Part shown: in pieces, positions 43,443-59,766 of the stretch
How the letters are laid out: each line of letters starts with the position of its first letter
How positions within the stretch are numbered: the first letter of the stretch is position 1
Position numbers and translations under genes: made by a program
The notes under the pieces: generated by a model
Database searches by the model: none
What the model was told of the DNA's origin: nothing
What the model saw: the letters and a program-made list of their open reading frames with translations, nothing else
Assembly (NCBI GenBank): GCA_045612895.1
Contig: JAZKZY010000122.1
Coordinates: 4,171-68,170 of the forward strand
Source: Candidatus Scatosoma sp.
Lineage (GTDB): Bacteria; Bacillota; Clostridia; Christensenellales; Borkfalkiaceae
DNA length: 64,000 bases
Direction of reading: 5' to 3'

Positions 43443-46400
43443 ATGAAAACCTTCATGAAACGAATTTATTTAATCGGTTTGACGGCACTTTGTACGTTGT
43501 GCCTGTTGTTCGGTGGCGTGTTCGCTTTTTCGCAAACGGCAACTGTAAAAGCGGCTTCGGCGCTTGAAACCGAATTTACCAACAATGGCCAAATTGTTAT
43601 CGGGGAGTATAGCGCAGCAAACGCCTTTGAATATGTAGAAGGTGTTGAAGGTGCGACTGGTGCGGCTCTTAAAATTAAAGCAGGGGCGTCACAAACGGCC
43701 TTTATTATGTTAAGTGTGCCTAGCGTTAAGGCGAGTGAGTTAGAAAGCATCGTTGTACGCATTTATTCGCCTGGTTATACCTCGGCGGATAGCTTTAGAG
43801 CGGCGGTAACAGCGGATGGGCAATGGCAACAAAATGATGCGGTAAATATGGGCAGCTGGGTTGAGGTGACCCTTAATGCAAAAGCTATTGCGATGATGAC
43901 GGGGGAAGGCGATTTCCTTAGCACGCCAATTGTGGTTGGTGCGCGTGCAAAGAGTCTAGCTGAATATTACTATATCGACAGTATTACCGTGACGGAAAAG
44001 CCTATGGGTGAAATCCCTATGGCTCAATTTGCTGGCGCTTGGGGCAATATAGATATGTACAACAGCGCGGAAAGAGTGTTGTTGATGTATAACAGTGATA
44101 ATGCTTGGGTATACCCCGATGAAGGAGACTTGGCATCCAAGGTAACCTATAAGAACTCCAAGACGGGCGCAACTCGTGCGGCAACGGATGCGGATATTGC
44201 AGGTTGGGACGGCCAAAAGTGGATTGTGTTCTCTAACCTGGCAGGTTATGACGTGCTTGAAATCGCGGAAGGCGGGACCTTTGGCGGTGGCGTTGGTATC
44301 CCTGCGCTTACCCTTTACAATGTAAACGGTCGTTGGGTAACGACGCCTCCATGCGAGGTAACGACCCATTACTTTGCGATTGCGGCAGGTTGGAATAACT
44401 TGATTACCAACGGCTTAGCGCAGACGATTGTATCTTTCGATTTGAAACCTCTTGCTGCTGCGGCGGATGCAACAAACCTTGCGGCTACGACAAACTGTAC
44501 TTCGATGATGGTAAAATACAACGGCAAGACGTTCCGTGAATTATATGCAGATACGACCAATGCCAATGCGCAACAATATAGAATTTCTTATGCGCATGGC
44601 AACAACCATTTCTATTTTGCTGTTCCTGAGGCAGACCTTGTAGAAGGCGCGACGTTTGAAATTGAAGAAGGTACGCCTTTCGTAGGCCAAGGCTTGGACG
44701 AAGTGAAACTTATTTTCAAAAACGGCGCGTGGGAATATTATAAGGAAGTCAACTATAATCCCGATTTCACCTCGATTGGTCAATTGAACCATTCTTACAA
44801 TGAAACCTTGGGCGCTTATGGTTTGTCTTTGAGATATGACACGAGCGGGTTTGCAGCCGACGGCAGCCAAGTAAGTACGAAACAACAGTCTGGCTTTACC
44901 TTGAACGGCGAGAATGTAGGCGTTGCGCTTTGGGGCGGCAATCAGTTGTTGTTCTGGTTGCATAAAGAAAGGTGCGAGGCAGGCTACAATGGTTATGAGC
45001 ATGCGACCTTGGAGATTGCGGAAGGCGCGAAGATTGTCAATCAGGAAGGGAAAGAATATACATTCAAAGCTTTGACGTTGTACCTTGTAGGCGGTCAATG
45101 GACGACCGAAAAGCCTGCAGAGGCAGAAAAAGCAACCTTTAACTCGATTTGGGGTAATATAGACACGTACAATGATTCTGACAGCGTATTGTTGATATTC
45201 AACAGCACGACCGCATGGAATCATACGGACAAAGGCACTTTGGCATCCAAAGTTACGTATAGAAATTCGTCTACGGGCGACACCTATACGGCAACCGACA
45301 GTGATATCGCGGGTTGGGAAGGTCAAAAGTGGATTGTGTTCTCTAACTTGGCTGGCTATGACGTGCTTGAAATCGCGGCAGGCGGTAAGTTTGGTGGCGT
45401 AGGAATTCCTGCGCTTACCATCTACAATGTAAACGGTCGTTGGGTAACGACGCCTGCAAGCGAGGTAACGACCAATTACTTTGCGATTGCGGTAGGTTGG
45501 AATAACTCGATTACCAACGGCTTGGCGCAGACGATTGTCTCTTTCGATTTGAAACCTCTTGCTGATGCTGCGGATTCAACAAACCTTGCGGCTACGACAA
45601 ACCGTACTTCGATGATGGTAAAATACAACGGCAAGACGTTCCGTGAATTATATGCAGATACGACCAATGCCAATGCGCAACAATATAGAATTTCTTATGC
45701 GCATGGCAACAACCATTTCTATTTTACTGTTCCTGAGGCAGACCTTGTAGAAGGCGCGACGTTTGAAATTGAAGAAGGTACGCCTTTCGTAGGCCAAGGC
45801 TTGGGCGCAGTAACCCTTGTCTACAAAAATGGCGCGTGGGAATATTATAAGGAAGTCAATTATAACCCCGATTTCGTATCGATTGGTGGCGCAAATAACT
45901 TGGAGTATGGGGAACATTACGGCTTAGCTTTGAGATATGATACCAACGGTTTCACCAGCGCGGGCAACCAAATTGTGGCGGCAAGCTATATAGGTATCAC
46001 CATCAACAGCGATGCGCAAACGACTGTGCTTTGGGGCGGGGATCAGTTGTTGTTCTGGATTCCTGCAAATAAGCTTGTTGAAGGCTACAACGGCTATTCG
46101 CATCCTACCTTTAAGATTATGGAAGGCGCAACGGTTGTCAATGAAAACGGTGAAACCTTCACGCTCGGCGCAGCAACGCTTTACCTTGTAGACGGGCAAT
46201 GGACGACCGAAAAACCCGCGGATTATTCCGTGACGGTGAATATTCCTGACTTGGGTGAACCCGATTGCGTATTCAAGGACTTTAATTTCTGGAATAATGA
46301 AAACGGCGCGACATTGTTTGAATTTATCAACTTTGTAAATAAGCCTACGACGACGTCCTCGTATCTCTCCACGACGGGGCATTATATCACCTTGAACGGT

Positions 46401-49400
46401 ACGAGATTGACCGAAGTGCCTGGCGCGAACGTATATACTTGGGAAAATACAAACTGGCTTCGTATTGACATTTTGAACCCTACGGAAGGTTCGATACTTA
46501 TCATTGAAGAAGGTACGCCGTTTGCAGGAAACTACCTTCCTAAGTTGGTTTTCAAATTTGAGGATGGCATATGGCATCAAGCGTTTATTCTAAATATTGA
46601 AATCGGTGATGAAACGTTTACCATTTACTCTATAAACGACATTCCCGTAATTCTTGATGACGTTTACTTTGAAAATTTTTTGGCTGAACGTTCGATCCCT
46701 GGTAAAGTGGTAAGCTTCTCTACGAGAGGGGTTACCTATGGGGCAGGTACGACTTTCAAGGCGTTGACGAATACGGACATCGTGGCGCAGGTAGTTGGTT
46801 TTGATACCACGGAAGGCGCTTCGGTGCGTTTGAAAACGCCTACGGGTATTCGTTATGAAACCAAAATCGACAAAGCGGATTACGACCGCTTGGTAGCGCT
46901 TTACGGCGCAGAAAACGTGGAAACCGGTACGTATATCGTGCCTAGATCTATGTTGGGTACGGCTGATTTTAGAAGCTATTTTGCAAGCGATATGAATGTG
47001 GAAGGAGCTGACTACGTATGTATTGTTAATACGGGTTGGGCAAATAAGGACACCGTGGATACGGATGGATATTATTTGTATTACGGTTCGCTTGTTAATC
47101 TTCAGGATATCAACTATGCTACGGAGTTCTTCGGTATCGGTTATATTAAGATTACCGACGGTACGAACGAATACGTTGTATACGGCGGGTATGATATGGA
47201 CGAATTTACGAGAAGTATCTACTACGTATCCGGTCGTGCGTATAAGGATTATGCAAGCGGCACAGCGGAAAAGAGTGTTTTGAAGAGCTATCTTGACAGC
47301 GTTGTATATATTACTGACGACGTAGCAATCGGCAATGGCATTGATGCGAAAGGGTATACTTCTCCTTATGCAGTGAGATACAACGCGCAAACGGGTGTTT
47401 ATACCATTACGGGTAATGCGGAAATTAAGTCCGTAATTATAGGGGATAGCAAGCGAATTAGCTATAGAACAAGCACTTTACTTGTGAGCGGTGAAGAATA
47501 TTACGTAACCGATTACGAGCTTACAGCTTCGGCTGAAGCATCTACGCTCACGTTTAAGCTTTCGCCTGTGCTCAATCCTTTGGATTTGGTGGATTTTGCA
47601 TTAGAAGTGCCTTCTAATAACGGGGTGAAGATTCTTCAAATCACCGACACCGAGTTGATTGACGCTACGCAAATGAGAACGGCGTCTAGTCTTTCGGCGG
47701 CGCAGCAAGAAGAATATGCGCGTAAAAACGTATATGCGAACTGCTTTAATTACATTTCCACGTTGGTTGAACAGGAAAAGCCCGATTTGATTATTCTTAC
47801 GGGTGATATGATCAATGGCAATTTTGACGACAATGGTTCGATGTGGTTGAGATTGATTGAGTTTATGGACTCTTTGAATATCCCTTGGGCGCCCGTATTC
47901 GGCTCGTTGGAAAATGAGAGCGCAATGGGTGCGGAATGGCAACGCGAACAGCTTTCCTCGGCAAAGAATAGCATTTTTAAGGTGAATTCCTCGACGGGTA
48001 AGGGCGATCATACGATTGCAATCACTGATAAAGGTGTGGTAAGACGTGTAATCTACATGCTTGATGCGAATGGGGATGCTGGTATCAACCAAGCACAAAT
48101 CACTTGGATGAAGAATACGGCTGCGAATATCTCGTTGAACTACGGAGACGTACCTGCATTTGTATGTTACAATAAGACGGCTGACACGAGCGTTGCTTCC
48201 GATTTTGCAGCTGTGAACGTTGATGGTGTATTTATGGGCAATGCGCCTTACGACAATTCTACCACCTTGTTGGATGGCATCTATTACACCTATGGGACGA
48301 AAACTGGCGCATATGGCGAGCATGATGCAAACAAACTTGGCGGTACGTATATTGAAGTATCGGCTGACGGGTTAGAATTTACGGTATCGGCGGAATGCCT
48401 TGATAAAACAGCGATGAAAGAAAAAGTAAGTATTGATGTGGTAACAACTTATGACGGATCTTCGGTGGTAACCGATGCGTATTTGAGACCTATTTGGGAT
48501 ACGGATCGTATTTATGACGAAACGGCTCTTTTTGTAGGTGAAACGGGCTCGGTAACCTTGATGTATACGCCGACCAATCCGAAGGAAGTGGTTGTTAGAG
48601 ATATCACGCTTGGTGTTACCTATACCTATGGCATCGACTATACGATTTCGGGCAACAAGGTAACGAGGGTTGCTGGTGGTAACCTTCCTTATAGATCTTA
48701 TGAAGAATATTATCTTAAAGAGCCTGTTCTTGTAAACGGTGTTCCTCAAAACTGGCGCGTAGATACCGTGGAAGATGATTATAGATATAGCGGTACGAGA
48801 TATATGTACTACGCAGAGGCATACGAAGGCGCTTCTCGTCACGTAACCTTTACCTATAACAAGTCGGAATCCTGGACGGGTACAACGATTGAGGGTGATA
48901 ATAATGCGCAGGCGTTCATCAATCAGTTAAAGACGGAAAAAGAAGCGAATATCTTGTTCTACGGCGACTCTATCACGGTAGGCTGTAACGCTTCCGGTAC
49001 GCAGTGGGGCGGCAATAGAAATCCTTTCTTGCCCTCGTGGGATGATTTGGTGACGAATTCGCTTGCGAAAATGTACGGCGCAAATATTACGAAATACAAC
49101 TGCGCGGTAGGCGGTTGGACGACGGCGCAGGGTGCTGAAAACTTTACCTCAAAAGCGGCTGAAGTTGGTGCGGATCTTTCCAATATCGATTTGCTCGTAC
49201 TGGCGTTTGGTATGAACGATCCCGCTACGGAGGACTCGAAATACATCGCGGATATCAAGTTGATGATAAACACGTATTATGCGGAAAATCCTAACGGAAA
49301 CGTGATTTTGGTTTCGCCTATGTTGCCCAACACGCAATCGAAGATGGTTTACGGTAATCACCACCTTTGGGAAGGCGCGTTAAATAAGGTCAAAAACAGC

Positions 49401-49586
49401 CAGGAATACGCAAGTAAGAACATTTCCCTTGCGAAAGTATTTACGATGTTTAACGAGCTTGTAACGGTGTCTGGTAAGCTGTCGAGAGATCATCTTGGCA
49501 ACAACATCAACCATCCGACCGATTTTGGTGTAAGAATTTACGCGCAGGTTATTTTAAAAACTTTGTGCGGTGACGACTTTGCGTAA
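43443..49586 (+). CDS. Giant secreted multi-module protein (2047 aa) ending in a degenerate metallophosphoesterase-like domain and an SGNH hydrolase module
   Basis: RBS TAAGGAG. Signal peptide with GGVFAFSQTATVKA. One CBM-like module and about 7 shared modules with a 1107-nt tandem duplication. A region homologous to aa ~1290-1560 of the 2042-aa protein. KILQITDTE ... DLIILTGDMING ... VFGSLENE (metallophosphoesterase-like). The last ~420 aa are a paralogue of 42131..43390 (FYGDSITVG, AFGMNDP, NNINHPTDFG). No C-terminal TM. Confidence 0.85.
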   Translation: MKTFMKRIYLIGLTALCTLCLLFGGVFAFSQTATVKAASALETEFTNNGQIVIGEYSAANAFEYVEGVEGATGAALKIKAGASQTAFIMLSVPSVKASELESIVVRIYSPGYTSADSFRAAVTADGQWQQNDAVNMGSWVEVTLNAKAIAMMTGEGDFLSTPIVVGARAKSLAEYYYIDSITVTEKPMGEIPMAQFAGAWGNIDMYNSAERVLLMYNSDNAWVYPDEGDLASKVTYKNSKTGATRAATDADIAGWDGQKWIVFSNLAGYDVLEIAEGGTFGGGVGIPALTLYNVNGRWVTTPPCEVTTHYFAIAAGWNNLITNGLAQTIVSFDLKPLAAAADATNLAATTNCTSMMVKYNGKTFRELYADTTNANAQQYRISYAHGNNHFYFAVPEADLVEGATFEIEEGTPFVGQGLDEVKLIFKNGAWEYYKEVNYNPDFTSIGQLNHSYNETLGAYGLSLRYDTSGFAADGSQVSTKQQSGFTLNGENVGVALWGGNQLLFWLHKERCEAGYNGYEHATLEIAEGAKIVNQEGKEYTFKALTLYLVGGQWTTEKPAEAEKATFNSIWGNIDTYNDSDSVLLIFNSTTAWNHTDKGTLASKVTYRNSSTGDTYTATDSDIAGWEGQKWIVFSNLAGYDVLEIAAGGKFGGVGIPALTIYNVNGRWVTTPASEVTTNYFAIAVGWNNSITNGLAQTIVSFDLKPLADAADSTNLAATTNRTSMMVKYNGKTFRELYADTTNANAQQYRISYAHGNNHFYFTVPEADLVEGATFEIEEGTPFVGQGLGAVTLVYKNGAWEYYKEVNYNPDFVSIGGANNLEYGEHYGLALRYDTNGFTSAGNQIVAASYIGITINSDAQTTVLWGGDQLLFWIPANKLVEGYNGYSHPTFKIMEGATVVNENGETFTLGAATLYLVDGQWTTEKPADYSVTVNIPDLGEPDCVFKDFNFWNNENGATLFEFINFVNKPTTTSSYLSTTGHYITLNGTRLTEVPGANVYTWENTNWLRIDILNPTEGSILIIEEGTPFAGNYLPKLVFKFEDGIWHQAFILNIEIGDETFTIYSINDIPVILDDVYFENFLAERSIPGKVVSFSTRGVTYGAGTTFKALTNTDIVAQVVGFDTTEGASVRLKTPTGIRYETKIDKADYDRLVALYGAENVETGTYIVPRSMLGTADFRSYFASDMNVEGADYVCIVNTGWANKDTVDTDGYYLYYGSLVNLQDINYATEFFGIGYIKITDGTNEYVVYGGYDMDEFTRSIYYVSGRAYKDYASGTAEKSVLKSYLDSVVYITDDVAIGNGIDAKGYTSPYAVRYNAQTGVYTITGNAEIKSVIIGDSKRISYRTSTLLVSGEEYYVTDYELTASAEASTLTFKLSPVLNPLDLVDFALEVPSNNGVKILQITDTELIDATQMRTASSLSAAQQEEYARKNVYANCFNYISTLVEQEKPDLIILTGDMINGNFDDNGSMWLRLIEFMDSLNIPWAPVFGSLENESAMGAEWQREQLSSAKNSIFKVNSSTGKGDHTIAITDKGVVRRVIYMLDANGDAGINQAQITWMKNTAANISLNYGDVPAFVCYNKTADTSVASDFAAVNVDGVFMGNAPYDNSTTLLDGIYYTYGTKTGAYGEHDANKLGGTYIEVSADGLEFTVSAECLDKTAMKEKVSIDVVTTYDGSSVVTDAYLRPIWDTDRIYDETALFVGETGSVTLMYTPTNPKEVVVRDITLGVTYTYGIDYTISGNKVTRVAGGNLPYRSYEEYYLKEPVLVNGVPQNWRVDTVEDDYRYSGTRYMYYAEAYEGASRHVTFTYNKSESWTGTTIEGDNNAQAFINQLKTEKEANILFYGDSITVGCNASGTQWGGNRNPFLPSWDDLVTNSLAKMYGANITKYNCAVGGWTTAQGAENFTSKAAEVGADLSNIDLLVLAFGMNDPATEDSKYIADIKLMINTYYAENPNGNVILVSPMLPNTQSKMVYGNHHLWEGALNKVKNSQEYASKNISLAKVFTMFNELVTVSGKLSRDHLGNNINHPTDFGVRIYAQVILKTLCGDDFA
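44019..46215 (+). repeat. Tandem duplication inside the 2047-aa gene (2 x ~1107-1110 nt, three modules per unit)
   Basis: TGTAAACGGT sits at 44321 and 45428 (offset 1107). The stretches ~44345-44705 and ~45452-45812 are nearly identical, and the last ~190 nt differ at one position. Confidence 0.9.
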
Positions 49587-52148: not shown

Positions 52149-53413
52149 GACAAAATTTGTAATAACTTTAAAGTGTACTAATTAATGTCAAAAATGGCTT
52201 CATTGCCAAATTTTGACTCCTCGGTTGAATCAAAGTAATTTAGTGCTTCCTTAGGCGTTTGGTATCCTAAGCATGAGTGTAATCGTTCGTTATTGTAATA
52301 CTGCACGTACTTTTCAATCGATTCAAAGAATTCTTCTGGCGTATTATATTTTCGGCGATAGATTTCTTCTTTCTTTAATGTGGCAAAGAATGATTCCATA
52401 TGTCCATTGTCATGGGGAGTTCCTTTCTTTGAGAATGATTGCGTTACACCGTGTGCGCGAAGATAAGAACTAAAACTTAAACTTGTATAAATGCCACCTT
52501 GGTCACTATGAAAAAGTAAACTAAGTGGGGCGGGACGGATTTGGTTGGCTGCTTCAAAAGTTAATGCAGCAAGTTGTGTGTTGTTCCGCGTTGAGATTTT
52601 ATAGGAGAGTATATATCTACTTGCAATGTCTTGGATAGTACAAATATAAAATTTAACTCCACAAATTTTGAACTCAGTAACGTCGCTTACCCAAGCAACA
52701 TCGGGACAAGAAAGAGCATAACGCTTTTGCCATGATAAAAGGTTTGGATGGCGGTTATCATATTTTTGTGGCGGTCTTGAAGGCTTTTCGCCAATTTTAA
52801 CGATAAGATTGTTTTCTTTCATTAATCGAGAAACTAACCGTGGGGAAGTTGTATATCCCATCCTTTTTAATGTGGCGCAAATACGTTTCGACCCATATCG
52901 CCCCTCATTTTTATTGAAGATGTCAATAATATGTTTAGTTAATTCTTTTCGGCGACGTGCATTCTTGGTTTCAATATTTTTTATGTATCTATAATATTTT
53001 GCCCTATCAAGACAAAGGCTTTGGCATAAAAATTTGACCGTATAATTTTTGCTTTGCTTTTTTACGGCTTCTAATTTTTCAATTTCAGATGATTGAGGCG
53101 AGCAACCAGTAATGCGATATATTTCTAATTGCTTTAGCATTTTCTCGTTCTGAGCTTTTAGTTCTTTGTAATCGTTTACGCTAATTAGTTCTCCCGCGTA
53201 TTTACATATCATACGGTGTTTAGTAATCCAATATTGTAATGTACTACTTGGAATTTTGTATTTCGCACATAATTCCTTAGCGGAAGTTCCTCTTAAATAT
53301 TTGCGAACCATCTTTAACCTAAATTCTTCAGTATATCGCGTATTTCTCATAAAATCCTCCTATCAATTCTAATTTTATGGGGTTGTATTGTAACCCGAAA
53401 TTGCGAATTTGTC
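52149..53413 (-). mobile_element. IS3-family insertion sequence (boundaries tentative)
   Basis: A transposase ORF plus a weak terminal inverted repeat: GACAAAATTTGTAAT (52149-52163) against the reverse complement of 53400-53413 (GACAAATTCGCAAT). I could not identify a target-site duplication. Confidence 0.45.
52178..53350 (-). CDS. IS3-family transposase (HTH + DDE/rve integrase core) as a single 390-aa ORF
   Basis: N-terminal HTH (TSAKELCAKYKIPSSTLQYWI), a leucine-zipper-like stretch, HTH_21-like GSKRICATLKRMGY, and the DDE triad context WVSDVTEF ... HSDQGGIY ... NGHMESFFATLKKE. Confidence 0.85.
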   Translation of the reverse strand: MRNTRYTEEFRLKMVRKYLRGTSAKELCAKYKIPSSTLQYWITKHRMICKYAGELISVNDYKELKAQNEKMLKQLEIYRITGCSPQSSEIEKLEAVKKQSKNYTVKFLCQSLCLDRAKYYRYIKNIETKNARRRKELTKHIIDIFNKNEGRYGSKRICATLKRMGYTTSPRLVSRLMKENNLIVKIGEKPSRPPQKYDNRHPNLLSWQKRYALSCPDVAWVSDVTEFKICGVKFYICTIQDIASRYILSYKISTRNNTQLAALTFEAANQIRPAPLSLLFHSDQGGIYTSLSFSSYLRAHGVTQSFSKKGTPHDNGHMESFFATLKKEEIYRRKYNTPEEFFESIEKYVQYYNNERLHSCLGYQTPKEALNYFDSTEESKFGNEAIFDIN

Positions 53414-53478: not shown

Positions 53479-53507
53479 TTTACAAATTAATGTACTTATG
53501 CTATAAT
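53479..53507 (+). promoter_or_regulatory. Near-consensus promoter of the four-gene island operon
   Basis: TTTACA (53479-53484), 17 nt, TATAAT (53502-53507), about 35 nt before the first ORF. Confidence 0.6.
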
Positions 53508-53542
53508 ACAAGTAATAACAACTAAAACAGTGGAGAATGAAA

Positions 53543-53848
53543 ATGTTTCGCGAACGCGGAAAATATATTGATAAGAATGTGACCTATTCTTCGAAAAATA
53601 GAACAACATATAACTACTGGGCTAACCCAGAATTCTCAGTATTGAAAGAGGATTGGACTCTTATTTTGAACGATTGGGTTAATCGCAAACTCTATCTTTT
53701 TAGAATTCCGGCAAAAGCCATTTCACCACAGGAGCTGGTTGCCAGAAATGATAAGCCAAATCTCATCGATATTCAGATTCTTGAAGATAATCCCAGTTTC
53801 GTGGATAGAAGAAGTGAGTATAGTTTCAGAGATTTTTTGATTGATTAG
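53543..53848 (+). CDS. Hypothetical small protein (101 aa; 103 aa if started at 53537)
   Basis: GGAG at 53532-53535 is better spaced for ATG 53543 than for ATG 53537. I recognise no motif. It is the first gene of the operon. Confidence 0.55.
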   Translation: MFRERGKYIDKNVTYSSKNRTTYNYWANPEFSVLKEDWTLILNDWVNRKLYLFRIPAKAISPQELVARNDKPNLIDIQILEDNPSFVDRRSEYSFRDFLID

Positions 53849-53889: not shown

Positions 53890-55434
53890 ATGAGTAACGA
53901 TACAAGTATTTTCGCATTTATATTTGACAGCGGCAGACTTGGCGATATGTGGTATGGCCGAGTGGTTTTTGAATATATGATGAAGGGAAAAGAGCTAACT
54001 CGTAATCCCTCAAAGATGATAGTTTCTTTGGGCGATATTCCCATTTATAAGCGGTATATTGATATAGAGCCATATGTGATCAAAGATGAGTATTGCACAA
54101 TAGATTTTGATGCACAGAATAATACAACCTCGTTTAAGGACTATCCTTATTGCTGGATTGTTGAAGATTTATCGATTGATATAGCACAAGAGATAGACAA
54201 GCGATTGAAGGAAACGCTAAAAGGTTATGTTGGCTTATCTCGTATTGATTTTAGAAACGCATCGCCTAGACAGCAGTTTTGGAAAAATATGATTCGCGAG
54301 TTTACATTATTTCAAGATACTATTACATGCTTTCAAGATCCAGAACTTGAAGGTGCATTCATGTATTGGGAAATTGCCACGGAAATGGGTTATAAAATTG
54401 AGTATCAGGCAGATTATGTTTGCATAGAAGAATCGGCTTTACTTCAATCTAGCCATATCAAAGCGGATGATGATTTGGAAATTAAACAACCGAGGAAAAA
54501 AGACATGGAAAGGGATTTATTAACATTGAATTTTTCCATACGGCAGGAACTTCAAATCTCCGGAGTGCTGATTTGGCGTGCGATAAACGATTTGGATAAG
54601 GTGCGCTTTTTGGAGGAGAATCAATGCAACGAGCAACTTATAGAATATCCTTTTTTGGCTCTCTATCATTGCTCTCAAGGTGTAGAAAGAATTCAAAAAG
54701 CCATTATTGAATTGATTTGCAAGAAAAAGCATATTGAGGAAAAAGCAAAAGACGCGGTTTATGATTTGCTCTTTAGCCATTCACACGATAAATTAAATCA
54801 GTGGATTGAGCAGCAAGAAAAGATTAAGTTTAGCAAAAATTGCAGAAAACTTATTAACATACTTGTCAAGTTTTATAATTCTGTAAGATATGCAAGATAT
54901 TCTGATGATGGGTGTAACAAAACTACCGCACCAGAGTTTCAATTGCTTTTGGAATTAAAGAATAAGAATAGTTCGGATTTGGACAGTGATATAAAAAATA
55001 TATTTGGACGCTGTTTGGGAGAATTATGTCATATTTATTTTAATTTGTATTACGAACTTTGCTATGATTTAAATATTTATGCGTACGAATTGGAATATGA
55101 TTCGGCAGCTACGATAGTTTATCATATCAATGATAAGCCTGTTAATTTGTATGAAAAATTAAAGCAAAGGCAAAATGCAAAGAAAGAAGTTATATATTGG
55201 TTAATTAAAAAAGCAAGACAATATCCTAAATATTCTATGACTAAAGAAGCTCCTTTGAAATTCGATCCTGAAATGATTGAGGGCTTTTTGTCTGATTTGA
55301 TTTTTAACCCAGAAGATGGATATGGGTTCTTTGATGAAGTAGATTGTCTGTATGACAATTTGTGTGCTGAAAACAAGGCGAAATGGTTGGATAGATTAGA
55401 GATGCTGAACTATATTATTGACAGAGAGTATTGA
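53890..55434 (+). CDS. Hypothetical 514-aa protein (no family recognised), upstream partner of the OLD/UvrD pair
   Basis: Strong RBS AAAGGGGGTAAT. No signal peptide or TM helix. The C-terminal half looks helical. No nucleotide-binding or nuclease motif that I can name. Confidence 0.65.
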   Translation: MSNDTSIFAFIFDSGRLGDMWYGRVVFEYMMKGKELTRNPSKMIVSLGDIPIYKRYIDIEPYVIKDEYCTIDFDAQNNTTSFKDYPYCWIVEDLSIDIAQEIDKRLKETLKGYVGLSRIDFRNASPRQQFWKNMIREFTLFQDTITCFQDPELEGAFMYWEIATEMGYKIEYQADYVCIEESALLQSSHIKADDDLEIKQPRKKDMERDLLTLNFSIRQELQISGVLIWRAINDLDKVRFLEENQCNEQLIEYPFLALYHCSQGVERIQKAIIELICKKKHIEEKAKDAVYDLLFSHSHDKLNQWIEQQEKIKFSKNCRKLINILVKFYNSVRYARYSDDGCNKTTAPEFQLLLELKNKNSSDLDSDIKNIFGRCLGELCHIYFNLYYELCYDLNIYAYELEYDSAATIVYHINDKPVNLYEKLKQRQNAKKEVIYWLIKKARQYPKYSMTKEAPLKFDPEMIEGFLSDLIFNPEDGYGFFDEVDCLYDNLCAENKAKWLDRLEMLNYIIDREY

Positions 55435-55465
55435 AAAACGTTAGGTTGATACGACGGAGGTAGAG

Positions 55466-57475
55466 ATGTACATATATAAGTTAGCCATTAAAAACTTCAG
55501 AACTTTCGGTGCTGATGGTGTTAGTTTTTTGTTTAATAAGGGGATAAATGTAGTTATCGGTGAAAACAATAGCGGAAAATCGGCAGTAATTGATGCTATA
55601 CGGCTGGCTTTTTCAAGTGTTTCCTATAAAAAGGAAATTTATTTTAGTAAAACAGATTTCCATATAAGTTATGATGGACACAAAGCAACGAGCGCTAATA
55701 TAGACATTTACTTGAAGGATGTGCCTAAAAATTTAATTGAAATATGGGATCCTGAAGAATCTGAATGCGGGGAATTTCATGTGAGTTTTACATTAGAAAA
55801 AACGCCTTCGGGATATGAAAGAGTAAAATGTAAGGCATGGGGTGGCAAATGTGAAGGGAATACATTGTCAGCAGATACGTTGGAAGCAATCAACATAGCG
55901 TATTTGGGAGCATTGAGAGACGCAGAAAATGAAATGAAACCATCACGAAATAGTAAGCTTGCTATGTTGCTTGAAACACTTGCATCCACTCCCGAAGAAA
56001 AAGATAGTTTGGTTTCAAAATTGAGGAATGCAAATCAAGAAATATTAGAAACCGAGTCGCTTAATAGAACTAAACGAACGATTAATGAAAACTTGTTTGA
56101 TTTGGAACAACCTCTTTTACATCAACAAATAGATTTAGGATTGGTTGAACCTAAATTTGAATCTATTATGTCATCTTTGCGATCTTGGATTGTTCCGAGA
56201 TGGTATTTCGTTGAAAAAAACAATCCCCAATATAATGAAATTCTGTTATTGTTTGATTCTGATGATTTAAAATCATTAATCCAAGTTCAGGCAAACGGAG
56301 CATTTATTGATGTAGATGCCTTTTTAGAAAAAAAGAGCGAACTTTCATCCGAGCACAAAGGATTACTACTGTCTTTGAAAAAACATTCTTTTGAATTATA
56401 TCAAAACGGACTGGGATATAACAATTTGTTGTTCGTGTCTGCGGTTTTGGGAGATATGTCATTTGCTAAATCAGGTGTATATTCTAATCTGTTTTTGGTT
56501 GAAGAACCAGAGGCACACTTACATCCTCAATTACAAGAGCTTGTTCTCGGGTTCTTTTATAAAAAGGTGAAGCAATCTGATAATATACAGGTTATTATGA
56601 CATCACATTCTCCGACCTTAGTTTCTAGGATTGGTATTAAACATATAAATTTGCTCTACGAATATCAGCATATGATATTTAATTATCCATTTATTAATTG
56701 TTCGTTAGACGAGGAAGAACAGGATTATTTGGAAAAATATTTAGATGTTACCAAATCGCAACTATTCTTTGCAAAAGGCGTTATTTTTGTAGAGGGGATT
56801 AGCGAGGCGATTCTTTTGCCCGAGTTTGCAAAAGTAATAGGTCGGCCGTTAGATATGTATGCGGTAGAGCTTGTCAATATAAATGGCGTGGGATTCTCAC
56901 CTTTTGCAAAAATGATTAAAATCCCGAACGAAGATTATGGATTTGCTAAAGCTTCCATTATTACTGATGATGATAGATGCTCTGACAAAGATGACAAGAC
57001 TACATATATATCTAAAGACTTAGATTTTGAGGATGATCTCAGTGCGTTGAGCGAGAGAATTAATAAAGGAATTCCTTCGGACAGATATCAAAACATATTG
57101 ACGCTATGTAATGACAATGTAGTAAAATGTTATGGCGCTACCAAGACATTTGAATATGAATTAGCTCTTGTTGACAACAATGTGCCATATATTTTAGAAG
57201 CAATAGAATCAGTCTATCCGATCGTCGGTAAAAAGCTTAAGGAGAAAGTAGAAACTGAGTCAAACACTCAAATCAAAGCATTGATGATTTGGTTGTTTGT
57301 ACAATCTCGAAATTCTGCTAAAGCACAGATTGCTCAGGCTTTAGGACGCTTGCTAAAAAAACAGATTGGAAAAATTGAAAGCGGTGTGAGAATAGAAAAG
57401 CCTTTTGTGATACCAGAGTATATACAAAAAGCTATTTATAATGTAACAAAGGATGCTGAAGGAGCGAAGGAGTAA
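55466..57475 (+). CDS. gajA: OLD-family ATP-dependent endonuclease (ABC-type ATPase + TOPRIM), GajA-like
   Basis: RBS GGAGGTAGAG. Walker A GENNSGKSAVIDAI; Walker B/D-loop LFLVEEPEAHLHPQLQ; signature-like YQNGLGYNNLL; TOPRIM Glu in VIFVEGISEAILLP; DxD in IITDDDRCSD. Confidence 0.8.
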   Translation: MYIYKLAIKNFRTFGADGVSFLFNKGINVVIGENNSGKSAVIDAIRLAFSSVSYKKEIYFSKTDFHISYDGHKATSANIDIYLKDVPKNLIEIWDPEESECGEFHVSFTLEKTPSGYERVKCKAWGGKCEGNTLSADTLEAINIAYLGALRDAENEMKPSRNSKLAMLLETLASTPEEKDSLVSKLRNANQEILETESLNRTKRTINENLFDLEQPLLHQQIDLGLVEPKFESIMSSLRSWIVPRWYFVEKNNPQYNEILLLFDSDDLKSLIQVQANGAFIDVDAFLEKKSELSSEHKGLLLSLKKHSFELYQNGLGYNNLLFVSAVLGDMSFAKSGVYSNLFLVEEPEAHLHPQLQELVLGFFYKKVKQSDNIQVIMTSHSPTLVSRIGIKHINLLYEYQHMIFNYPFINCSLDEEEQDYLEKYLDVTKSQLFFAKGVIFVEGISEAILLPEFAKVIGRPLDMYAVELVNINGVGFSPFAKMIKIPNEDYGFAKASIITDDDRCSDKDDKTTYISKDLDFEDDLSALSERINKGIPSDRYQNILTLCNDNVVKCYGATKTFEYELALVDNNVPYILEAIESVYPIVGKKLKEKVETESNTQIKALMIWLFVQSRNSAKAQIAQALGRLLKKQIGKIESGVRIEKPFVIPEYIQKAIYNVTKDAEGAKE

Positions 57476-57477
57476 TT

Positions 57478-59232
57478 ATGTATGATTTTACAACAGAGCA
57501 AAAAGACTTTCTTTCTTCAGCAGGAAAAGTAGTATTACACGCATGTCCTGGCAGTGGAAAAACTACAGTTGTTGCTCAGAAAGTAATAAACTATTTAATG
57601 AGTTGGAATCGACCACACCAAGGCATTGCAGTGTTATCATTTACTAATGTTGCAAGTGAAGAAATTGCGCGGCAAGCGCGAGAGATATTACCTCAAGGAT
57701 ATGATATTGGAACACCTCACTTTGTGGGCACATTAGATAGTTTTATCGATAATTATATATTCTTGCGCTTTGGGTATTTGTTGTTAGAAACTCCGAAAAG
57801 ACCTTTGATTGCAACTAATGATATATCAAACGGTTATAGTTATTGGAGAGAGGATTGCTATAGAAATGGTTGCGTATCTAATATTGATCAATTTAAGTGG
57901 GAAGAAAATGGAGACTTATCCAAAAATGGAAATTCAATAGATTGCCCTGGAAGCGGAAGATATGCTCCACCATGTATTCAATTCAAAAAAATGATGCTCG
58001 AAAAAGGGCTATTTTTTCAAAATGAAATAGCAGGGTTAACCTGTTCATTATTGAAAAAATATTCTCTTATAGCTAAAAGTATAGCAGAGAGATTTCCAGT
58101 CATTATATTGGATGAAGCTCAAGACACATCTATAGAACAAATGGAAATTTTGGATTTGTTGTGCGAAGCGGGGCTGGAATCAATATTTATTGTAGGAGAT
58201 CCCGATCAAGCTATTTATGAGTGGAGAACAGCAGATCCAGAATCTTTTATGAAAAAAATGTATGACGAGAGTTGGTCGCATTTAACATTGTCTGAAAATT
58301 TCAGAAGTTCGCAATTAATATGTAACGCTACCTATGTTTTTTCAGATATATTGAAAGAAAGGTGTGCAAATGAAGCAAAGGGAAATTCGGCTAATTTCAC
58401 TCAAAAGCCAGTTCTCCTTCTTTATGAGAATGGTACGAGTAAAGATGCGATTATAACAAGATTCAATGAGTTGTGTAAAAACAATGATATAGAAATTTCT
58501 GCGGATAGTGTTGCTATAGTAACCAGAGGAAAAATACATTCTGATTATGATGTAAAAGATTTGTGGAAAACCCCGGAAACAGAGTTTTTGGCTAGAGCTT
58601 CTTACGAATGGTCGTACGGTAACAGAAGAAAAGCGTATGAAATTTGCGAAAAAGCAATATTTCAACTTGTTGTAAAGCCGTTTGAGAAAATTGATATTTC
58701 AATTGAGAAAGATGTTTCAAAGGTGGTACAATATGATGTATGGAAACAAATGATTATTGATATTCTTGTATCGTTGCCTTCTGCTGACGAAGCTTGCGGT
58801 TCTTGGATACAAAATACAAGAAATGCTGTTCAAAGCTCTATGGAAAACTATGGCGTGACATTACGAAACGGTATGGTGTTGATAGATGCGCTTAAAATTA
58901 AATCGCGAGACACTGAAAAACCTAATTACAAGGAATTTCCAGTAAAAGTCTTTTTTGAAAAGAAAATCCAAAGCGAGTACACAAAAGCCTCTGTCCATGG
59001 CGTTAAAGGCGAAACGTACGATGCGTTGCTTCTTTTGATTGAAAGCACAAGAGGAACTACACTTACTCCATCTTTTCTTGCTAGTGGCGACACAAGCAAA
59101 GAACTTATGAGAATTGCATATGTCGCAATGACAAGGCCACGTAAATTATTGGTTGTAGCCATGCCAAAAAGCAGAGTTGATCTTTCGAAAAGATTTCCTA
59201 GAGATAAGTGGGATTATATTGATCTTACATAA
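57478..59232 (+). CDS. gajB: UvrD/Rep/PcrA-type superfamily-1 helicase, GajB-like
   Basis: The start lies 2 nt after the upstream stop. Motif I ACPGSGKTT; II VIILDEAQDTS; III IVGDPDQAIYEWR; IV LSENFRS; V SVHGVKGETYDALLLL; VI IAYVAMTRPRKLLVV. Confidence 0.8.
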   Translation: MYDFTTEQKDFLSSAGKVVLHACPGSGKTTVVAQKVINYLMSWNRPHQGIAVLSFTNVASEEIARQAREILPQGYDIGTPHFVGTLDSFIDNYIFLRFGYLLLETPKRPLIATNDISNGYSYWREDCYRNGCVSNIDQFKWEENGDLSKNGNSIDCPGSGRYAPPCIQFKKMMLEKGLFFQNEIAGLTCSLLKKYSLIAKSIAERFPVIILDEAQDTSIEQMEILDLLCEAGLESIFIVGDPDQAIYEWRTADPESFMKKMYDESWSHLTLSENFRSSQLICNATYVFSDILKERCANEAKGNSANFTQKPVLLLYENGTSKDAIITRFNELCKNNDIEISADSVAIVTRGKIHSDYDVKDLWKTPETEFLARASYEWSYGNRRKAYEICEKAIFQLVVKPFEKIDISIEKDVSKVVQYDVWKQMIIDILVSLPSADEACGSWIQNTRNAVQSSMENYGVTLRNGMVLIDALKIKSRDTEKPNYKEFPVKVFFEKKIQSEYTKASVHGVKGETYDALLLLIESTRGTTLTPSFLASGDTSKELMRIAYVAMTRPRKLLVVAMPKSRVDLSKRFPRDKWDYIDLT

Positions 59233-59390
59233 CAAACTGGCAGTAATCGCAACTCGTTATTACCGCCTTAATACTACCGAAAAGTAGCCGAAAATGAGCT
59301 AAAAATATCCGTAAGTAGTCAAATATGTGGTCAAAGGCGAAAAATGGGCTTGTGGGGCCCTGAAAGTAGGGAAGAACAAGCCCATTATGT

Positions 59391-59430
59391 ATATCGCGAA
59401 AACGCGAGATTTCGCGAGGATTTGCGAGAT
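59391..59430. repeat. Four phased 10-nt repeats (consensus nnCGCGAGAT)
   Basis: ATATCGCGAA / AACGCGAGAT / TTCGCGAGGA / TTTGCGAGAT in tandem. TTTGCGAGAT also occurs at 52067-52076 near the other island end. Confidence 0.5.
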
Positions 59431-59469
59431 AAAAAAAAGAAATTCGGAGGTTCGTTATGAACCTCCGAA
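59431..59469 (-). terminator. Minus-strand rho-independent terminator following the tRNA-like fragment
   Basis: TTCGGAGGTTC (59443-59453) / GTTAT / GAACCTCCGAA (59459-59469). The A8 tract on the + strand gives a T-run on the minus strand. Confidence 0.65.
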
Positions 59470-59470
59470 C

Positions 59471-59498
59471 TGGTCTGAGTGACAAGACTTGAACTTGC
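59471..59498 (-). pseudogene. tRNA-like 3' fragment (T-arm + acceptor 3' strand + ACCA) with no 5' half
   Basis: The reverse complement reads GCAAG-TTCAAGT-CTTGT-CACTCAG-A-CCA. No matching CTGAGTG acceptor 5' strand or canonical anticodon arm occurs in the next 90 nt. Confidence 0.45.
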
Positions 59499-59632
59499 GG
59501 CCTCTACCACCCCAAGATGCTTAATCCAAATTTATTGTTGGATGAGCCCAATTTACTTGCAAATTTTATAAAAAAGGGATATAATTAAAAAGTCGTTGAT
59601 AAAAGCACGACTAAAAAGATAGAAATATAAAT

Positions 59633-59679: not shown

Positions 59680-59709
59680 ACATCCTTCCATTTGGCAGGG
59701 GCTATAAGA
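59676..59709. repeat. Island-bounding direct repeat, tRNA-proximal copy
   Basis: ATCGACATCCTT + 5 nt + TGGCAGGGGCTATAAGA, matching 51951-51983. Confidence 0.8.
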
Positions 59710-59766
59710 ATTGAACTCATCTCATTGGTTTTGGAGACCAAGGCACAACCACTATACCAAACCCCT
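59693..59766 (-). tRNA. tRNA-Trp (anticodon CCA)
   Basis: The hand-folded reverse complement is 74 nt. Acceptor AGGGGTT/AGCCCCT (one G-U); D arm GTAT-AGTGGTT-GTGC; anticodon arm TTGGT-CTCCAAA-ACCAA; T arm ATGAG-TTCAATT-CTTAT; G discriminator and encoded CCA. Confidence 0.85.

Follow-up and report, generated by a model that had tools for sequence, protein, structure and literature searches.

A widespread two-domain protein family recurrently placed beside Gabija genes is a candidate anti-phage defence module

In this study, we analyzed a 514-aa protein, hereafter X514, which is encoded immediately upstream of the two genes of the anti-phage system Gabija, gajA and gajB, in a 64,000-nt stretch of DNA from Candidatus Scatosoma sp. 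(Bacillota, Clostridia; assembly GCA_045612895.1, contig JAZKZY010000122.1, positions 4,171 to 68,170 of the forward strand). This whole stretch is termed the window, and all coordinates without another source refer to it. The family of X514 is unnamed and widespread, and its members accompany mobile elements and genes for phage defence; X514 has joined Gabija pairs several times, involving three unrelated subtypes, two gene orders and shuffled partners. Because this family accompanies defence genes and heads a conserved Gabija cassette, X514 is a good candidate for a new defence module working with Gabija. We place roughly even confidence in the view that it is not a subunit dedicated to Gabija but an autonomous abortive-infection-like module that was recruited to its side repeatedly. 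Neither a catalogue model nor a paper was found that describes the X514 family, or a partner of this kind in a Gabija cassette.

The original prediction, made from the sequence alone, had treated X514 as an orphan, a description that did not survive database searches. Its homologues formed 103 clusters among 5.8 billion clustered proteins, with identities from 96% down to 34%; nearly all of them were full length (~505-540 aa), unnamed and derived from Clostridia-type metagenome-assembled genomes. Further loci were recovered by genome and metagenome scans in Lachnospiraceae, Christensenellaceae, Acutalibacteraceae, Oscillibacter, Acholeplasmatales, Bacillales and Abiotrophia. The 76 full-length loci collapsed into 38 lineages at 95% identity, and the 32 lineages with usable flanks were examined. 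PADLOC recognized 7 GajA and 7 GajB proteins among the 111 neighbours within two genes of X514, and a recognized Gabija pair stood beside X514 in 7 of the 32 lineages, or in 6 of the 21 with at least 5 kb on both sides, while ~75% of the lineages had no Gabija nearby.

The Gabija-linked loci fall into distinct arrangements. The first, X514-gajA-gajB, was found in the window, L019, L021/L046, L096-98 and L035; the triad was retained in L019, L021 and L046 at 54-58% X514 identity, and in L035 the three genes had decayed together. In the second, an ATPase (536 aa) and a short helicase (398 aa) precede X514 (L001-4, L018 and L042, and also L073/L082/L089, whose X514 is just 36% identical to that of the other members). 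A third, unrelated ATPase-helicase pair lies upstream of X514 in L027. The partners have evidently been shuffled: between the window and L001, the X514 proteins are 60% identical and the ATPases only 23% over 164 aa, with the opposite gene order, whereas members of the second arrangement have ATPases with 63% identity and X514 proteins with 36%. In a neighbour-joining tree of X514, Gabija-linked, restriction-modification (RM)-linked and solitary lineages were intermixed.

In L001-L004, L018 and L042, the second arrangement forms part of a conjugative element, where it is located between ArdA/DUF4316, TraG-like genes and a MobA/VirD2-like relaxase. Gabija-tmn has been reported from a similar position, the leading region, of E. 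coli plasmids.

In the window itself, the nuclease/helicase pair that had been noted downstream of X514 proved to be a full-length, high-scoring Gabija pair: the first gene encodes an ABC/OLD-type ATPase with a C-terminal TOPRIM nuclease and the second an adjoining UvrD-like SF1 helicase (Table 1). X514 itself matched no PADLOC Gabija model and, given the ~75% of lineages free of Gabija, it is not a recognized or obligatory component of the system. The literature searches returned nothing on a three-gene Gabija or on the accessions of the plasmid homologues described below, and the sole published third Gabija protein found was the unrelated, MazF-like GajC.

X514, gajA and gajB are co-inherited and move as one mobile cassette, the shared DNA starting at the start codon of X514 and ending past gajB. 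Where a contig encodes a GajA with 90% or more identity to that of the window, a 513-515-aa X514 homologue was found upstream with an identical 31-nt gap. The outer neighbours differed: DUF3990 and an HTH protein flank one end, a GH3 glycosidase the opposite one. By blastn, homology between the window and L096/L097 (94%) was confined to positions 53908-59481, and that to the more diverged L019/L021/L046 (68%) ran from 53888/53908 to 59217. The last feature within the block common to the window and L096/L097 is a hairpin downstream of gajB, the only strong hairpin with T-runs found there, which is likely the terminator closing the cassette; no convincing plus-strand terminator was detected ahead of it in the terminator scan. 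Thus, the limits of homology define the conserved unit as exactly X514, gajA and gajB plus the terminator. As the intergenic gaps are short (31 nt between X514 and gajA, 2 nt between gajA and gajB) and hold neither a promoter nor a terminator, the three genes are probably co-transcribed in the window as a single unit.

The placement of X514 at the head of an operon holds in one sense, since the conserved cassette begins with it. In the window strain, the best plus-strand promoter-like match, which probably drives the transcription unit, is followed not by X514 but by a relic reading frame (orf103, see below). The ribosome-binding site that had been noted was confirmed as a Shine-Dalgarno sequence, AGGGGG, at 53880-85, 4 nt before the ATG of X514.

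X514 is a real gene under purifying selection, with ratios of nonsynonymous to synonymous divergence (dN/dS) of 0.12 (window versus L096) and 0.17 (L001 versus L042). Its synonymous divergence (dS) is uncoupled from that of its neighbours within the same cassette: between the window and L096 (1393-2940), dS was 0.55 for X514 versus 0.09 and 0.06 for gajA/gajB, and between L001 and L042 it was 0.35 versus 0.11 and 0.17, an excess of 4-9 fold and 2-3 fold, respectively. In the former comparison, the dS of X514 was 1.12 at the 5' end and dropped to 0 at the gajA-proximal end. The raised dS with this gradient indicates that X514 alleles recombine more often than gajAB, in a cassette that is otherwise young. 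Such allele exchange could mark a specificity or sensor module, or could just reflect the edge position of the gene.

These observations bear on two alternatives. According to the first, a variant of Gabija has X514 as its obligate third subunit, a sensor or regulator that binds GajA-GajB and gates their nuclease or nucleotide-depleting activity. The cassette would then be a genuine three-component system, and such a role is close to the sensor or regulatory one initially proposed for X514. Co-inheritance with gajAB and the adjacency to Gabija in 7 of 32 lineages agree with such a role, as do the operon-tight spacing, the homology block of exactly three genes, the persistence of the triad in L019, L021 and L046, the joint decay in L035, and the second triad of ATPase, short helicase and X514, which was kept across 36% X514 identity. 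However, about three quarters of the lineages and the entire family of stand-alone C-terminal domains, including its plasmid genes, do without Gabija; the partners do not co-diverge and were swapped between unrelated Gabija subtypes and gene orders; X514 and gajA/gajB differ in synonymous divergence within one cassette; and the canonical two-gene Gabija is established to suffice for defence (see also PMC13069673). We therefore consider a dedicated subunit unlikely.

The second alternative, which we regard as rather unlikely, is that X514 is an independent accessory gene, serving defence or the maintenance of mobile elements, which hitch-hikes beside Gabija as a result of island clustering or co-transfer. 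Its varied contexts (RM, AbiH, Schlafen-like and kinase genes, insertion sequence (IS) elements and the relaxase of an integrative and conjugative element), its position at the cassette edge with raised dS and allele exchange, and its stand-alone relatives on plasmids would all be expected of a passenger. Nevertheless, adjacency in 7 of 32 lineages through at least 3 independent junction types is far above the expectation for one of more than 100 interchangeable neighbours, and gaps of at most 31 nt without promoter or terminator imply co-transcription.

The wider neighbourhoods of X514 also contain mobile and defence functions. In addition to Gabija, the recurrent neighbours were IS3 transposases, recombinases, relaxases, AbiH (twice), N6 methylases and protein kinases, and single loci contained a type I RM HsdS, a type IIG RM with HNH, Schlafen/AlbA_2-HATPase proteins, or a DUF2971/SLFN-helicase/PLD island. 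Domain fusions were also observed. In P0062 (L016/L017), an Abi_2 domain of the AbiD/F HEPN type (E 2e-8, motif RNAVSHH) is fused N-terminally to X514; P0084/P0090 and L062 carry an N-terminal transmembrane/helical extension, and P0102 (L076/L077) a C-terminal extension of ~100 aa. A role outside defence, be it regulatory or enzymatic, in the biology of mobile elements (transfer, replication or exclusion) or in host metabolism, is very unlikely in our view. Some loci indeed look ordinary, with P0058 and P0082 surrounded by metabolic genes, no defence model matches X514, and no copies were found in phage genomes; against this stand the lack of any DNA-binding or metabolic domain in X514, its patchy, island-like distribution with low G + C content, the Abi_2 HEPN fusion in one lineage, and the repeated presence of RM, Abi or Gabija genes next to it. 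Across structure prediction with Foldseek, profile searches and homologue neighbourhoods, neither a housekeeping context nor an unrelated characterized family emerged.

Two side observations concern individual copies: one IMG/VR contig carries a copy, and in L076/L077 the X514 gene is preceded by those for an AriA/GajA-like ATPase and a Schlafen-AlbA_2/HATPase_c_4 protein.

The AlphaFold2 model of X514, built on a 64-sequence alignment, is of high confidence (predicted local distance difference test (pLDDT) 91, predicted template modelling score 0.89) and comprises an alpha/beta N-domain (~1-200) and an all-helical C-domain (~210-514; residue numbers are those of the window X514 throughout), in agreement with the division proposed from the sequence. 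The protein is acidic (pI 5.05) and soluble, as predicted: no transmembrane or signal segment was detected, with a maximum Kyte-Doolittle(19) value of 0.96. The absence of a recognizable motif was likewise borne out. Walker A, and hence a P-loop, is absent; the lone Rx4-6H match, R374..H381, is not conserved across the family; scans against the Pfam, PADLOC, NCBIfam and PHROGs profiles gave zero matches; and consensus sequences of both domains gave nothing meaningful against the profile libraries. Sequence searches of the PDB with the single sequence and three profiles (A1, A2 and A6) returned nothing relevant, and Foldseek with the full model found no match with E<0.09 in PDB or BFVD. The N-domain is confined to the X514 family, with invariant residues D13, Y22, G23, E35, G48, D58, P61, Y113, G115 and W131, and showed weak ferredoxin-like similarities in Foldseek (ribosomal protein S6 and the RepB origin-binding domain, E>=0.85).

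The C-domain has a far wider distribution of its own. A profile search of 1.84 billion representatives yielded 484 matches to the X514 profile, of which ~30 were full length; most of the others were proteins of ~300-320 or 390-410 aa that aligned solely to profile positions 210-515. A second search, seeded with these C-domain-only proteins, yielded 464 clusters, all annotated as 'hypothetical' and without a Pfam domain, from hosts including Bacillus cereus, Priestia, Duganella, Janthinobacterium, Burkholderia pseudomallei, Bradyrhizobium, Methylomonas and Chlorobiales. By tblastn, C-domain-only genes were located on 23 plasmids as single genes without a conserved partner; the carriers were Bacillus cereus-group plasmids, dairy plasmids of Lactococcus lactis and Lactiplantibacillus plasmids of 6.5-7 kb, on which the gene is among the few cargo genes. 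None was found in 50,697 phage records searched with tblastn. On chromosomes, copies were found in a defence-island or mobile-element context, near ToxN, topoisomerase and integrase genes in Bacillus, near HATPase_c_3, Mrr_cat, DUF5677 and SMC_N genes in Janthinobacterium, near HsdM, resolvase and PriCT_2/Toprim_3 primase genes in Bradyrhizobium and near a TIR_2 gene in Priestia, and no conserved partner was seen in the loci examined. The C-domain thus forms a module in its own right, which plasmids and defence islands of Bacillota and Pseudomonadota carry.

Among the plasmid copies are L094 (NZ_CP068769.1, 6.5 kb), L093 (pAH1-1) and L095 (pBT9727, a conjugative plasmid of B. thuringiensis). 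Very small Lactiplantibacillus plasmids, the dairy plasmids of L. lactis and such a conjugative plasmid are the classic niche of abortive-infection genes. The protein of pBT9727 is WP_000339127, and WP_202861386 is a stand-alone homologue from an L. plantarum plasmid. Weak matches to Pfam DUF7103 (PF23396), itself uncharacterized, were obtained for 15 of 192 C-domain family members (alignments A2 and A5, best E 0.005), and the two families may be distantly related.

Ten polar residues are invariant in the whole C-domain family, as read from alignments A2, A3, A5 and A6: E220, Y259, E266, R267, K270, H297, Y329, R333, Y334 and E433. Such family-wide invariance argues for a putative active site or specific ligand site. 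Their position in the model offers a lead to the chemistry of the domain, whose helices are predicted at 210-236, 252-280, 316-332 and 364-394, with an insert at 284-310. E266 lies in the second long helix and H297 in the helical insert that follows it; R333 closes the core helix 316-332, and beyond it the full-length family has an aspartate (D339, after five intervening residues) in place of a histidine. A HEPN variant without the motif histidine and with an alternative histidine has been described in HEPN-T/AbiV/AF0298-type proteins of the PF05168 type (Anantharaman et al., PMC3710099), and the order and position of the invariant residues in the predicted structure would fit such a non-canonical AbiV/AF0298-type site. 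In addition, 7 of the 192 family members gave sub-threshold matches to PF05168 (best E 0.002; 13.5 bits versus a cut-off of 22 bits), which map the H...RY block of the C-domain to profile positions 51-99. No curated HEPN profile was matched above threshold, the window X514 having 0 Pfam matches; a conserved Rx4-6H at the end of helix 3 is absent, as R333 is invariant and no histidine follows; and PF07751 (Abi_2) with its RNxxxH motif is not found in the window X514, occurring only as the separate N-terminal fusion in P0062. The HEPN reading of the C-domain is therefore tentative, and we rate it somewhat below an even chance. Readings of the invariant residues as HD, HNH, tyrosine-recombinase or Fic sites were rejected on motif order or fold, by reasoning alone.

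From these comparisons, we infer a defence function, an enzymatic activity, a regulatory N-domain and synergy with Gabija for X514, and the following scheme may be proposed. The functional core would be the C-terminal helical domain, and the N-terminal alpha/beta domain would be a family-specific add-on. The C-domain may be an effector enzyme, for which a HEPN-like RNase of non-canonical type, working through E266, H297 and R333, is the most plausible candidate; the N-domain, in a regulatory or sensing role, would hold it inactive until a phage cue is perceived. X514 would be able to act alone as an abortive-infection-type module, and its repeated recruitment beside Gabija might be explained if the two act better together, in the manner of tmn, which co-opts the ATPase of GajA. 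A more far-reaching version is possible, though we think it less probable than not by some distance: the C-domain would represent a new, widespread family of single-gene abortive-infection proteins, encoded on plasmids of lactic acid bacteria and Bacillus and in defence islands of proteobacteria, whose fold has no counterpart in the PDB and whose catalytic site is HEPN-like but non-canonical. The two-domain X514 would plug into the sensory ATPase of Gabija to give a hitherto unrecognized three-gene 'Gabija-plus' with several independent origins.

Several points weigh against an autonomous abortive-infection-like module with HEPN-like chemistry. Among the known and candidate defence protein models of PADLOC-DB v2.0.0, 0 families matched X514, and PADLOC gave no meaningful matches for 69 + 7 C-domain homologues, among them the copies encoded on lactococcal, Lactiplantibacillus and Bacillus plasmids; the stand-alone C-domain proteins therefore belong to no catalogued Abi system. 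Foldseek with the whole model or with the isolated helical core (pLDDT 90.6) retrieved no HEPN structure from the PDB, only generic helical bundles (best E 0.29-0.65), PDB profile searches found nothing, and the Pfam HEPN signal replicated poorly in a second set (1 of 123). A toxin without an antitoxin partner must be self-inhibited, and for X514 such self-inhibition is assumed. Furthermore, X514 is always at the cassette edge, and its dS of 0.55 versus 0.06-0.09 could point to a frequently exchanged passenger rather than a functional partner. Finally, gene calls in the related loci are crude longest-ORF (open reading frame) calls.

The cassette of the window is located in an island of low G + C content (~34% over 52-59.5 kb versus ~44% in the flanks), with an IS3-family transposase at its left edge and a tRNA gene to its right (Table 1). 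The small ORF between the transposase and X514, orf103, had been regarded as unassignable; it is a relic beside the IS3 element and corresponds to the C-terminal 111 residues (residues 81-191, 89% identity, in a tblastn alignment crossing the stop codon) of the widespread P0383 family of ~190 aa, whose full-length members carry an N-terminal RelB/DinJ antitoxin domain (PF04221). It lacks the first 80 residues, and with them the RelB/DinJ ribbon-helix-helix domain, the C-terminal half alone being retained; a premature TAG is found where its relatives have Q, seven residues before their end. The ORF is restricted to near-identical strains, is absent from the other cassette loci and lies outside the cassette homology. 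The intact IS3 element probably caused the truncation; only weak inverted repeats were found when its terminal repeats were sought.

On the right side, a 47-nt stretch at 59470-59516 that resembles the 3' half of a tRNA is 100% identical to L096 9715-9761, a site 2.7 kb past the end of cassette homology in that contig. This arrangement suggests insertion at a tRNA-associated hot spot, the GH3 gene being a variable element between the two. Outside the island, on its upstream side and where the G + C content is normal, positions 43443-49586 encode a secreted protein of 2047 aa with two internal repeats of ~500 aa.

Table 1. Features of the X514 locus in the window
Feature	Position	Strand	Evidence and remarks
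IS3-family transposase	52178..53350	-	Pfam rve, rve_3, HTH_21, HTH_Tnp_1; left edge of low-GC island
Promoter-like site TTTACA-17-TATAAT, extended TG	53479..53507	+	11/12 matches; 5' of relic orf103
orf103	53537..53848	+	tblastn; truncated relic of ~190-aa RelB/DinJ-fused gene
X514 (514-aa ORF)	53890..55434	+	ORF listing; two-domain protein, first gene of conserved cassette
X514 N-terminal alpha/beta domain, aa 1-200	53890..54489	+	AlphaFold2 model; confined to X514 family
X514 C-terminal helical domain, aa 205-514	54502..55431	+	Profile matches, alignment A2; stand-alone relatives of ~310 or 400 aa
Block of C-domain invariant residues (putative site)	54547..54891	+	E220, Y259, E266-R267-x2-K270, H297, Y329, R333-Y334; E433 at 55186-55188
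gajA	55466..57475	+	PADLOC PDLC00071, E 1.2e-165; Pfam AAA_15 + OLD-like_TOPRIM; OLD-family ABC-ATPase plus TOPRIM nuclease
gajB	57478..59232	+	PADLOC PDLC00138, E 2.1e-158; Pfam UvrD-helicase; UvrD-type SF1 helicase
Hairpin (likely terminator), 13-bp, G+C-rich, A-/T-runs on each side	59441..59471	.	Terminator scan, sequence
tRNA-Trp gene	59693..59766	-	Right of low-GC island

Gabija, among the commonest defences against phages, is regarded as consisting of two genes; a conserved, mobile three-gene form with repeated origin and an uncharacterized partner would add an extra layer in triggering, backup or protection from phage inhibitors. The C-domain family, which comprises hundreds of nameless clusters without a structural neighbour, is carried singly by small plasmids in bacteria of food and the gut, and is a cheap candidate for a phage-resistance determinant, with E266, R267, K270, H297 and R333 as mutational targets.

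Compared to known systems, X514 shares features with several and coincides with none of them. With the HEPN-T (PF05168)/AbiV-type proteins, it shares long helices, an insert between core helices, an acidic residue in helix 2, a histidine in the insert and an arginine ending the third core helix, followed by an aspartate; its helices are longer than usual, however, and it has an extra C-terminal subdomain of ~120 aa. The stand-alone C-domain proteins resemble AbiD/AbiF (Abi_2, PF07751) in being all-helical single-gene products of ~310-350 aa encoded on plasmids of lactic acid bacteria, although in the X514 region neither a match to the Abi_2 profile nor the RNxxxH motif is present. GajC of the 'type II Gabija' (Liu-DS1; PMC13069673), a split MazF-like protein proposed to be an RNase effector, is, like X514, an additional or substitute product of a Gabija-like operon; unlike X514, which accompanies an intact GajA, differs in architecture and is unrelated to it, GajC replaces GajA. 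An identity of X514 with the published GajC was rejected on these grounds.

With Gabija itself, the connection lies in the downstream genes, to which X514 is linked by co-inheritance and probable co-transcription, whereas the system is defined as two genes, X514 matches none of its models and most X514 homologues are free of Gabija. A parallel is provided by tmn, a single-gene KAP NTPase defence system that co-localizes with Gabija and co-opts the ATPase of GajA (bioRxiv 10.1101/2022.08.21.504612). The two proteins are unrelated in sequence and fold, X514 having neither a P-loop nor transmembrane helices. Like X514, however, tmn is a single-gene module that occurs alone and yet repeatedly beside Gabija and other ATPase-containing systems. 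By analogy, tmn may offer the best functional model for a cooperation between X514 and Gabija.

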